Program-made: the position numbers and the translations under genes | Notes under the pieces: model-generated | Seen by the model: the letters and a program-made list of their open reading frames with translations, nothing else | Told to the model about the DNA's origin: nothing | Database searches by the model: none | DNA from: Deltaproteobacteria bacterium | Lineage (GTDB): Bacteria; Desulfobacterota; Syntrophobacteria; BM002 | Length of the DNA stretch: 64,000 nucleotides | Direction of reading: 5' to 3' | NCBI GenBank assembly: GCA_020353155.1 | Contig: CP070689.1 | Span: 2,476,315 to 2,540,314, forward strand | Shown: one piece after another, positions 39,892 through 46,236 of the stretch | How the letters are laid out: each line of letters begins with the position of its first letter | Position numbering within the stretch: the first letter of the stretch is position 1

Positions 39892-40200
39892 TCACTCATC
39901 TTTCTCCTTTTTCTCGGGGCTGACTATGGAGAACTTCTCATCTCCAGGGAAAGGTTGTCCCTGAACGAAAGGATTAATGTGCCAATTGCCCCGGTGGTAG
40001 AGCCAAGTTCTCCCCGTTTTTGTGTCTACCAAAAGAACGCCCCCCTCTGTATTAAATGCTTGAAATCTTCCAATTTCGTCAAGTTTTACCACAGGATTTA
40101 CGAGTTTTACTTGATCTTCTTTGGCTTGGGCTACGTGGGCAAACACCAGAACCATTGCGGCAATCAATCCCAGTAAAATCCAGTAGTTTTTTTTCTTCAT
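39892..40200 (-). CDS. small secreted protein, unknown function
   Basis: 102 aa with GGAGGAAGAG RBS. Signal peptide MKKKNYWILLGLIAAMVLVFAHVAQA followed by KE. Confidence 0.55.
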   Translation of the reverse strand: MKKKNYWILLGLIAAMVLVFAHVAQAKEDQVKLVNPVVKLDEIGRFQAFNTEGGVLLVDTKTGRTWLYHRGNWHINPFVQGQPFPGDEKFSIVSPEKKEKDE

Positions 40201-40531
40201 CTCTTCCTCCTTTGTAACTGATTACCTTGAGGTTTATGAGGGCGTCTCTAGCGGCAGAGCCTGGTTATCTTTTACCAGAATTTATTACTTTCTTCCTAAT
40301 CATTTTCTTTTTTATGTTTTTCATTTCAAGGAATTTAAGCCATCTTGAGTATTTTTTCTGCGATATCTGAAGCTCTAGGAAAAAATGGCCTTCTTGGGAG
40401 TCCATTTTTGGCCCTTTGACCAACTCGATCTCCGGATTTGGCCAGATTTAGCTATTTGGCAAGGTTAACCGAGAGTTAGTTTTACAATTAAACAATTGAT
40501 TTTATTAGTTTAAACGTGTTTTTAGAGCTAT

Positions 40532-40555
40532 TGGCATCTTTCCTGCCTATATAAT
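40532..40555 (+). promoter_or_regulatory. orphan promoter (sigma54-like TGGCAT-N7-CTGC overlapping a perfect TATAAT)
   Basis: The GG at 40533-40534 and GC at 40545-40546 have the canonical 10-nt separation of -24/-12 promoters. A perfect TATAAT lies at 40550-40555, with only a weak -35. No CDS starts within 440 nt downstream. Confidence 0.4.
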
Positions 40556-40556
40556 A

Positions 40557-40650
40557 AGCCAGTCTCCAAAACTCCTTTTCTTGCTCAACTCTTTATGGCC
40601 CTTGCCCCCATCAGAATCGGGCGCGATAACTGGTGGGGGCTTCCTTTTTT
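40557..40650 (+). ncRNA. candidate small RNA or transcribed leader (promoter to intrinsic terminator)
   Basis: Defined only by the promoter-like sequence at 40532-40555 and the strong terminator at 40604-40650. It contains no RBS-preceded ORF. Both ends are inferred. Confidence 0.3.
40604..40650 (+). terminator. strong Rho-independent terminator with no upstream plus-strand CDS
   Basis: gcccccatcag (40604-40614) pairs with ctggtgggggc (40630-40640): 11 bp with one G-U. An inner atcg/cgat stem closes a ggcg tetraloop. The hairpin is followed by ttcctttttt (40641-40650). Confidence 0.65.
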
Positions 40651-40796
40651 ACTACCCTTCTCCCCATGCCTTGCGACTGCGCTCTATCTTTTTCCGCATC
40701 TTAAAATCCCTCCAGTCGGGGGAGAGAAAAGGGCTTATAGGACAGGCTCTTGGCGAAAAGTGTAGGAGATGTCATTTAATAGCCCTGGCAGCATCG

Positions 40797-40805
40797 TGCT
40801 ATACT
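40797..40805 (+). promoter_or_regulatory. candidate extended -10 promoter (TGCTATACT) for the SDR-ALDH-molybdoenzyme genes
   Basis: TGnTATACT at 40797-40805, about 190 nt upstream of the SDR ATG. No good -35. Confidence 0.3.
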
Positions 40806-40904
40806 CCCATCTGAGATGAACAGTCCAGTGCATTTTTGTTTCCTCAATTTGCCATTTTCGAGACCAGATCAAAAGGTAACATTCCGTTGAATGGGAGAAT
40901 AAAA

Positions 40905-40982
40905 GCATTAGAGCATAAGAGAATCAGATTACCATTTACTCTTTTTTCCCCTATGCTCTATGCTCCATGCTCTATGCTCTCT
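40905..40982. repeat. inverted CATAGAG-family element ending 8 nt before the SDR RBS
   Basis: gcattagagcataagag (40905-40921) faces ccctatg ctctatg ctccatg ctctatg ctctcta (40948-40982). The RBS AAGGAG begins at 40988. Confidence 0.75.
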
Positions 40983-40998
40983 AAGCAAAGGAGAAACC

Positions 40999-41811
40999 AT
41001 GACCTACTTCACCAACAAAGTGACCTTGATCACTGGTGGCGCCTGTGGTTTGGGGCGGCTGGTTGCTCACAAGGTAGCTGCAAGGGGAAGTCACGTTGTC
41101 ATCTGGGATATCGCCGCTGAAAGCTTGGCCAACACTGCCAGAGAACTCTATGGAGTTGGCTATAAGGTGACGACTTATCACTGTGATGTGTCTGACCGTG
41201 ATATGGTCTATGGTCTTGCAGAAAAAGTAAAAAAAGATGTTGGCAAAGTGGATATTTTAATTAATAACGCCGGGGTTGTCTGTGGAAGACCTTTCCTGGA
41301 GTGCAGTGACGAAGAATTAGAAAGAACTTTGGGGGTCAATTTGCTGGCCCACTTCTGGACAGTCAAGGCGTTCCTACCTGATATGGTCAGGACAAATAGC
41401 GGACACATTGTCACTGTTGCTTCCGCCGGAGGTATTGTGGGCAGTTCAGGGTTGGTTGCTTATGCTGCCAGCAAGTTTGCCGATTTCGGCTTCGATGAGG
41501 CCTTGAGAGCTGAGTTGAAAAAGCAAAGACTAAAAATTTACACTACCGTGGTCTGTCCATATTTTATTAGGGGCGAAATGTTTGCAGGTGCAAAGACACG
41601 ATTTTCTTTTTTATTGCCTATTTTGGATGCTGAGAAGGTGAGCGAGCGTATAGTTAAAGCCATTGCTCTAAGAAAACAACGGGTGATAATGCCGCCTCTG
41701 GTCTATGCTACCTGGCCCCTTAGACTGCTCCCTGTGTCCATATTTGATAAGGTGGCTACTTTTTTGGGGATCAACGACGCCATGGACGAATTCCAGGGCC
41801 GTCGGCCCTGA
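40999..41811 (+). CDS. short-chain dehydrogenase/reductase (classical SDR)
   Basis: Trimmed to the ATG at 40999 (MTYFTNKVTLITGGACGLG), 5 nt after AAGGAG. The track start at 40960 reads through the heptamer array. Catalytic YAASK. Confidence 0.8.
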   Translation: MTYFTNKVTLITGGACGLGRLVAHKVAARGSHVVIWDIAAESLANTARELYGVGYKVTTYHCDVSDRDMVYGLAEKVKKDVGKVDILINNAGVVCGRPFLECSDEELERTLGVNLLAHFWTVKAFLPDMVRTNSGHIVTVASAGGIVGSSGLVAYAASKFADFGFDEALRAELKKQRLKIYTTVVCPYFIRGEMFAGAKTRFSFLLPILDAEKVSERIVKAIALRKQRVIMPPLVYATWPLRLLPVSIFDKVATFLGINDAMDEFQGRRP

Positions 41812-45690: not shown

Positions 45691-46155
45691 CTAAAAATAA
45701 AATCGGGCTCCGACAACCCCTTCCATATCGAATTCTGTGTCTGGAGACACGTTGAATATGGGGACTATTTCTGCAAATACGTCGAAAGGAACGCTCTTAA
45801 ATAGATGTTCCACTCCCAGAGGAAAGCGAAAACCAGCCTTGTTGTCTTTGTTATCTCGAAAAACAGCCCTGGAGCCGACGCCTAGATATATTGGCGTTTC
45901 TCCAGAGCCAGCATCGATCAAAGAATAAATGTGATAGAGGTAATCGGCATAGATGTGGAAGTCGTGATCACTGTCTGGCGACCACCCAAAGCCCACGTCG
46001 AGAGCATTATACTTATCGATAAAATATTTGCCATTTACACCCGTTGGCACACCCACGGTAACTCCCAGGCCGAATTGTTCCTCTGCCATTGCAGTTCCGG
46101 AAAGTAAAAGAACCGTTATAATCACGAGCGCGAAACCTTTTAGAGTCTTGATCAT
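45691..46155 (-). CDS. small outer-membrane beta-barrel protein
   Basis: Trimmed to the ATG at 46155 (MIKTLKGFALVIITVLLLSGTAMA), 7 nt after AAGGAG. It has an alternating beta-strand pattern and a C-terminal GARFYF with terminal Phe. Confidence 0.6.
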   Translation of the reverse strand: MIKTLKGFALVIITVLLLSGTAMAEEQFGLGVTVGVPTGVNGKYFIDKYNALDVGFGWSPDSDHDFHIYADYLYHIYSLIDAGSGETPIYLGVGSRAVFRDNKDNKAGFRFPLGVEHLFKSVPFDVFAEIVPIFNVSPDTEFDMEGVVGARFYF

Positions 46156-46236
46156 CTTACCGCTCCTTTTCTTGGATTCGGATTTGATGCTCAAAGAGAG
46201 AAATGGACCAGAATTGGTACAAACATTTCTCCACTA

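Follow-up and report, generated by a model that had tools for sequence, protein, structure and literature searches.

Sigma-54-dependent small RNAs (sRNAs) are known mainly from cultivable Proteobacteria (Qrr, GlmY/Z, CrcZ), with a few predicted in Desulfovibrio. In Vibrio, qrr1 is activated by bEBPs (PMC10162802). The glmY and glmZ genes use three activator sites more than 100 bp upstream, IHF sites in between and a -24/-12 promoter, and this layout is duplicated for the two sRNAs. A sigma-70 -10 beside the -12 element is found only in some lineages or genera (PMC3045617). Desulfovibrio vulgaris Hildenborough is reported to have four sigma-54-dependent ncRNAs, which belong to the regulons of DVU0653, DVU0679, DVU1419 and DVU2359. 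These ncRNA genes have dedicated enhancer-binding proteins and are said to be typical of free-living species (PMC4641369).

Here we describe a locus in a 64,000-nucleotide stretch of contig CP070689.1 from a Deltaproteobacteria bacterium, which we call the window. Positions 40408-40650 of the window are likely to be an independent sigma-54-dependent small RNA gene with its own enhancer, from which a short RNA would be transcribed. The RNA is a new family of a known kind, the sigma-54-dependent sRNAs.

The likeness to Qrr1-5 of Vibrio (LuxO and sigma-54) is one of organization. Both have several siblings of about 100 nt per genome, each with a sigma-54 promoter and sites for one activator, and both combine a shared single-stranded seed with a Rho-independent terminator and no tie to a downstream gene. 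The RNA does not, however, match the Qrr covariance model, with its four stem-loops and a conserved stretch of 32 nt. Qrr RNAs have four stem-loops where this RNA has one terminal hairpin, and the phylum differs. The enhancer here is TTGGC-N6-GCCAA, not a LuxO site, and no activator gene is adjacent. Qrr RNAs need Hfq, whereas the order to which this genome belongs lacks it.

GlmY/GlmZ (GlrR, sigma-54 and IHF) have the same promoter layout, likewise duplicated for sister RNAs, and their lineage-limited sigma-70 -10 parallels a non-conserved TATAAT at our locus. There is no match to the GlmY_tke1 or GlmZ_SraJ covariance models, however, and GlrR sites read TGTC-N10-GACA in contrast to TTGGC-N6-GCCAA. 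GlmZ activates glmS and GlmY is a RapZ decoy, whereas here we find only a weak seed match to the cell-wall gene ddl, without covariation support. The D. vulgaris ncRNAs come from the same phylum and also have sigma-54 promoters, but class and genus differ. Most of them adjoin their activator genes, which the present RNA does not, and here, unlike there, several siblings share one enhancer with PilZ genes. They are set apart from our RNA by description and not by sequence, and no Rfam family links them.

Anatomy of the element

An earlier note on this DNA had described a sigma-54 promoter followed by an intrinsic terminator, and all the letters it described are present when 40000-41300 is read. 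The features now assigned are collected in Table 1. The GG-N10-GC spacing that the note gave for the promoter is correct, but the gap between TGGCAT (40532-40537) and CTGC (40543-40546) is N5 and not N7, a miscount. TATAAT, which it had overlapping the promoter, is instead adjacent and starts 3 nt after the -12 GC. A sigma-70 reading of this hexamer was rejected because it is not conserved and has no usable -35 at 16-18 nt; the TATAAT is probably non-functional.

Table 1. Features of the element and of related loci. Positions are those of the window unless preceded by genome C1.
Feature	Position	Strand	Remarks
Predicted activator site 1, palindrome TTGGCCCTTTGACCAA (TTGGC-N6-rCCAA)	40408-40423		Conserved spacing
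Predicted activator sites 2/3, ATTTGGCCAGATTTAGCTATTTGGCAAGG	40436-40464		About -108; aligned and conserved in all subtypes
AT-rich block, enhancer-promoter interval	40487-40513		About -58; IHF-like
Sigma-54 -24/-12 promoter TGGCATCTTTCCTGC	40532-40546	+	GG 40533-34, GC 40545-46; basis: conservation
TATAAT hexamer	40550-40555	+	Non-conserved; relatives read TATGTCAATA, TATGTTAACA etc.
Predicted small RNA, about 94 nt	40557-40650	+	Start predicted 11-12 nt after the -12 GC; end at the U-tract
Seed CUCCUUUUCUUGCUC	40572-40586	+	Anti-Shine-Dalgarno CUCCUU and core CUU(U/G)UCUUGCUC; single-stranded
Conserved UUUAUGGCCC before the terminator	40592-40601	+	Subtypes 1 and 3, not 2
Intrinsic terminator, stem GCCCCCAUCAG/CUGGUGGGGGC, variable inner loop, tail UUCCUUUUUU	40604-40650	+	Fold and conservation
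Unit A (this element)	40531-40651	+	Sigma-54 promoter
Sibling B	genome C1 2246624-2246742	-	Sigma-70-like promoter
Sibling C	genome C1 32376-32490	-	Sigma-54 promoter; same enhancer as A
Sibling D	genome C1 36457-36567	-	Consensus sigma-54 promoter
73-aa membrane-anchored protein	genome C1 ~2992682-2992240	-	Enhancer-sharing promoter
160-aa PilZ-domain protein gene	genome C1 ~2906453-2905780	-	Enhancer-sharing promoter

The promoter pattern TGGCAYN5YTGC occurs once in the window, where 0.67 occurrences are expected, and 52 of 100 shuffled sequences contain it at least once. The match by itself is not significant, and the reality of the promoter rests on its conservation. GGCAT..TTCCTGC is near-invariant in 14 primary and 9 paralog-2 copies, with single substitutions in a few sequences, while the roughly 25 nt 3' of the -12 element, TATAAT included, are variable across the 14-copy alignment. 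The -12 element in this genome, CTGC, differs from the consensus TTGC.

Site 1 of the predicted enhancer begins 125 nt before TGGCAT, at about -142 relative to the predicted start. It stands at an equal distance in the primary copies, in paralog 2 and in about 40 metagenome variants that cover all subtypes. Sites 2/3, with the family consensus tttcGCCAAATyTGGygATTTmACAAA, lie 92 nt upstream of TGGCAT and are found upstream of sibling C too. In this genome the AT-rich block, read as its reverse complement AATCAATTGTTTA, agrees with the IHF consensus WATCAANNNNTTR; relatives agree less well, and the block is partly conserved (taa..attg.atttatt..ttaa) in 14 genomes. It is likely an IHF-like DNA-bending site. 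The AT-rich 40440-40520 region had been singled out earlier as the place to look for an activator site. The predicted sites lie further upstream, at 40408-40464, and the AT-rich stretch itself is the IHF-like one.

We propose that an enhancer-binding protein would bind TTGGC-N6-GCCAA-type sites at about -142 and -108, and that the block at about -58 would probably bend the DNA. Sigma-54 RNA polymerase at TGGCAT-N5-CTGC would then be activated. Transcription from near 40557 to the strong terminator would yield an RNA about 94 nt long.

This genome has one copy of rpoN and 23 Sigma54_activat (activator) genes. A tblastn search with a bEBP AAA+ domain found no activator gene near the RNA in about 150 loci, and within this genome tens of kb separate the RNA gene from the closest bEBP genes. 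A separate unit was noticed at genome C1 3175205-3175305 (+), where, just past a bEBP gene that stops at genome position 3175038, a sigma-54-like promoter, TTGGCACTTTCGCTGCA, precedes a TTGGCGATTTCGCCAA hairpin with a T-run. The TTGGCGATTTCGCCAA palindrome was considered as a pointer to the cognate activator and set aside, since its geometry is different from that of the enhancer and it may be an RNA hairpin. The unit is possibly another tiny sigma-54-driven RNA beside its activator.

The conserved block stops exactly at the U-tract. Its terminator has the parts first attributed to it: an 11-bp stem of GCCCCCATCAG (40604-40614) and CTGGTGGGGGC (40630-40640) with one G-U pair, an inner 4-bp ATCG/CGAT stem with a GGCG tetraloop, and a T-rich tail, TTCCTTTTTT, to 40650. 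The fold of 40557-40652 has an energy of -29.7 kcal/mol (z = -2.66), and 0 of 200 shuffles are as stable. A consensus scanner passed over the hairpin solely because of its 8-nt loop limit. In the consensus fold of 19 sequences the terminator helix is the only structure and the 5' 47 nt or so are unpaired; the seed is unpaired in the MFE, single and consensus folds. Compensatory changes in the hairpin had been suggested as a check. The hairpin is conserved: across 14 sequences 98% of the stem cells are paired, and the differences comprise one compensatory pair and several exchanges between G-C and G-U. There is almost no covariation, because the stem sequence is nearly invariant.

Family extent and genomic context

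A DNA search of 41 related genomes found the region in 15. In nine of these 15, similarity to 40440-40720 is confined to 40531-40651 (query 92-212), a segment that opens with the T preceding GGCAT and closes with the U-tract. The flanks of this block diverge among relatives. A covariance model built from 14 aligned copies scores 99-150 bits in 14 of the 18 genomes of the genus, and conservation outside this strain, which the earlier note had made a test of its reading, is thus found. A second paralog scores 47-77 bits in at least nine genomes. The same search of 104 other genomes (30 genera) of the class gave nothing at E<=1e-4, and sister genera gave weak sibling-like matches only (for example L052). 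Rfam has no match at gathering score in the whole window, nor any at E<=10 in 40200-41000 that overlaps 40531-40651.

A metagenome scan with a pattern that specified the promoter and the terminator's 5' arm alone, leaving the seed unconstrained, yielded 52 contigs with 38 distinct sequences. All comparison sequences are metagenome-assembled genomes (MAGs) of one genus or metagenome contigs, and the carriers are uncultured Desulfobacterota, Syntrophobacterales or 'Desulfobacteraceae' MAGs from mud, cold-seep and similar samples. Pooled, the metagenome and genome copies make 52 unique sequences and fall into three to four subtypes: 1a (the clade of this genome), 1b (the main clade), 2 and 3. The core CUU(G/U)UCUUGCUC is 90-98% conserved in the 52, and it is the best conserved part of the seed; the anti-Shine-Dalgarno CUCCUU varies across subtypes (CUUCUU, UCCCUU, CUCCAU). 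After the variable stretch of about 25 nt, the 14-copy alignment has an invariant AAAACTCCTT(T/G)TCTTGCTC, then a conserved TTTATGGCCC, then the terminator. By these searches the RNA is a family absent from Rfam and restricted to one uncultured sediment Desulfobacterota genus of the sulfate-reducer type.

The nearest upstream gene lies on the opposite strand, as had been noted, at 39892-40200. It encodes a 102-aa exported protein with no Pfam match and occurs only in this genome and one other (G016). By comparison with relatives, the gene reads as a clade-specific insertion that separates the sRNA enhancer from the radical SAM gene. On the other side, the next plus-strand CDS is an SDR gene that starts at 40999, about 350 nt downstream, again as the earlier note had it. 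A heptamer array (CTATGCT units) at 40948-40982 lies just upstream of the SDR ribosome-binding site.

The element is independent of its downstream gene. In this genome the SDR-ALDH-molybdoenzyme genes are co-oriented with it, and the earlier note had offered two readings, an independent sRNA or a terminator-controlled leader of this cluster. A cis-acting leader or attenuator of read-through into the cluster is highly improbable. The U-tract is interrupted (UUCCUUUUUU), which makes some read-through conceivable, but the SDR gene stands 3' of the element only in its own subclade and in G010, and the leader reading fails because the next gene is convergent in most genomes, the main clade among them. 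A candidate promoter of its own, with a TG-extended -10 (40776-40805), precedes the SDR gene as well. No alternative anti-terminator fold is predicted, the consensus fold being the terminator helix only, and there is no Rfam riboswitch, aptamer or leader match. With a convergent gene downstream in the main clade and sister copies at unrelated loci, we reject the leader. Synteny is kept only with an upstream pair, CoADR-rhodanese and radical SAM, on the same strand as the element. The hairpin might on this ground be the terminator, or a 3'UTR-derived RNA, of the CoADR-rhodanese/radical SAM operon, with the sigma-54-like motif inactive; indeed, in the main clade the element lies about 141 nt past the radical SAM stop codon and no other terminator is evident in between. 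We hold this to be very unlikely. G006 has lost the radical SAM gene yet keeps the element, and in this genome and G016 the minus-strand gene at 39892-40200 intervenes. Sister copies at other loci, moreover, retain promoter and enhancer, and the -24/-12 and enhancer sites are better conserved than the 5' end of the RNA. The independent sRNA of the earlier note, by contrast, is strongly supported, with promoter, RNA and terminator forming one conserved block and the enhancer sites at fixed spacing.

Siblings and a shared enhancer

The stem CCCCCAyCAG...yTGrTGGGGG followed by a T-run was found at four loci in this genome, all of them short orphan units (A to D in Table 1). Its sequence is invariant across siblings with different bodies. 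Siblings C and D lie among PilZ-domain genes, and the hairpin loops of B and C carry CUCCU / CCUCCUC. Paralog 2, in the nine or more genomes that have it, repeats the same enhancer, promoter, core and terminator at other loci.

Three more sigma-54 promoters of this genome have the enhancer palindrome 124-126 nt upstream: those of sibling RNA C, the 73-aa protein and the 160-aa PilZ-domain protein. Of about ten palindrome-promoter pairs, four share a single 3-nt distance bin, which a back-of-envelope estimate places far beyond chance. This suggests, from the placement of the sites, that one activator regulon unites sRNAs and c-di-GMP receptors (PilZ).

A wider reading, which we regard as speculative and rather unlikely, would make the siblings, at least four in number, a Qrr-like hub under one enhancer-binding protein that also drives PilZ-type c-di-GMP receptor genes. 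Such a hub would supply the post-transcriptional side of a lifestyle (c-di-GMP) switch. Because Hfq and ProQ are absent, the stem GCCCCCAUCAG/CUGAUGGGGGC, which is confined to these loci, would in that case serve as the docking module for a small-RNA-binding protein.

Mode of action and significance

The unstructured first 47 nt or so of the RNA would expose the pyrimidine-rich seed CUCCUU(U/G)UCUUGCUC. Most likely, the RNA would block translation of mRNAs from other loci by pairing, without Hfq, with their purine-rich ribosome-binding regions. As one of several siblings, it would form the post-transcriptional arm of one activator's regulon, whose enhancer also stands before PilZ-domain genes. 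We put the chance that the RNA acts by base-pairing at ribosome-binding sites at about even.

None of the 22 genomes of the order has a match to the Pfam model for Hfq, and a tblastn search with the E. coli protein was also negative; ProQ was searched for in this genome and is absent. The RNA must therefore act without the usual chaperones. Despite the lack of Hfq in the order and of ProQ in this genome, there are several sRNA-like genes.

A genome scan for targets with RNAduplex was too noisy, with purine-rich windows dominating. An exact-complement scan returned two ribosome-binding sites, that of ddl (GCAAGAAAAGGAG, 13 nt) and that of a 154-aa exported protein (CAAGAAAAGGAG, a 12-nt perfect complement at window positions 46163-46174, minus strand). 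In the main clade their orthologues read GCAAGAACAGGAG and AAGAUAAGGAG. The main-clade seed, CUCCUUGUCUUGC, carries a U-to-G change that neither set of orthologues follows cleanly, and there is no clean compensatory match. A genus-wide search for GAGCAAGAMAAGGAG with <=1 mismatch found nothing but the sRNA genes and chance matches in coding sequence, EEDKE for example.

The 154-aa protein is at best a weak target candidate. Its gene lies at window positions 45694-46155 (-), 5.5 kb from the sRNA gene; it has a signal peptide and no Pfam match, and is possibly a small outer-membrane beta-barrel. The ddl 5'UTR (genome C1 939260-939300 and orthologues L086-L102) has a hairpin, CUGCAGG-N4/6-CCUGCA, conserved genus-wide right before the ribosome-binding site, and this hairpin may be the reason why the letters GCAAGA are conserved at that place. 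Elsewhere, at genome C1 2568367-2568381 (+), a 15-nt perfect complement of the seed, TTGAGCAAGAAAAGG, stands directly before a strong terminator hairpin, GGGTACCCATCGATTAATCGATGGGTACCCTTTT. This could be a 3'UTR target or a sponge site.

The RNA could also be real and sigma-54-dependent without pairing at ribosome-binding sites. It would then work by titration of a protein, as the decoy of a sibling RNA in the manner of GlmY and GlmZ, or by pairing elsewhere in mRNAs through the UCUUGCUC core. We consider this unlikely, although several observations favour it: the best-conserved letters are CUU(G/U)UCUUGCUC and not the variable anti-Shine-Dalgarno, the target searches (ribosome-binding-site complements and the genus-wide seed complement) gave no convincing target, the invariant stem on differing sibling bodies is what a protein-recognition module would look like, and Hfq (order) and ProQ (this genome) are absent. 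A long unstructured pyrimidine seed, however, is the usual signature of a base-pairing RNA, the CUCCU-type loops of siblings B and C point the same way, and the RNA has no repeats of protein-binding motifs of the GGA or CA-rich kind. Barely credible is a small peptide read from the conserved AUG at 40595 (within UUUAUGGCCC). That AUG is conserved in subtypes 1 and 3 and opens a frame of 56 codons in this genome, but it has no Shine-Dalgarno, its frame passes through the terminator, and a 4-nt indel in the hairpin loop shifts the frame between clades, so that the stop position differs and 17 codons are left in the main clade. Subtype 2 lacks the AUG, and there is no Pfam match. Two ORFs in fact start inside the interval, 40581-40814 and 40595-40765, and both run through the terminator. 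Neither has a ribosome-binding site, in line with the earlier note, which had seen no ORF preceded by one, and a coding reading of either was rejected on this ground together with the missing Pfam match and the non-conserved frame.

An sRNA that pairs at ribosome-binding sites remains our preferred reading of how the RNA would work. For annotation, the finding explains part of an 800-bp 'empty' spacer and removes a supposed leader from the SDR-ALDH-molybdoenzyme cluster. It adds a well-delimited RNA family with a testable cis-regulatory anatomy of three predicted activator sites, a putative bending site and a -24/-12 promoter. In a lineage without Hfq, and with ProQ absent in this genome, the RNA is a candidate model for studying how base-pairing RNAs manage when the usual chaperones are missing. 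If true, the hub reading would tie the siblings to a c-di-GMP lifestyle switch in uncultured sediment Desulfobacterota.
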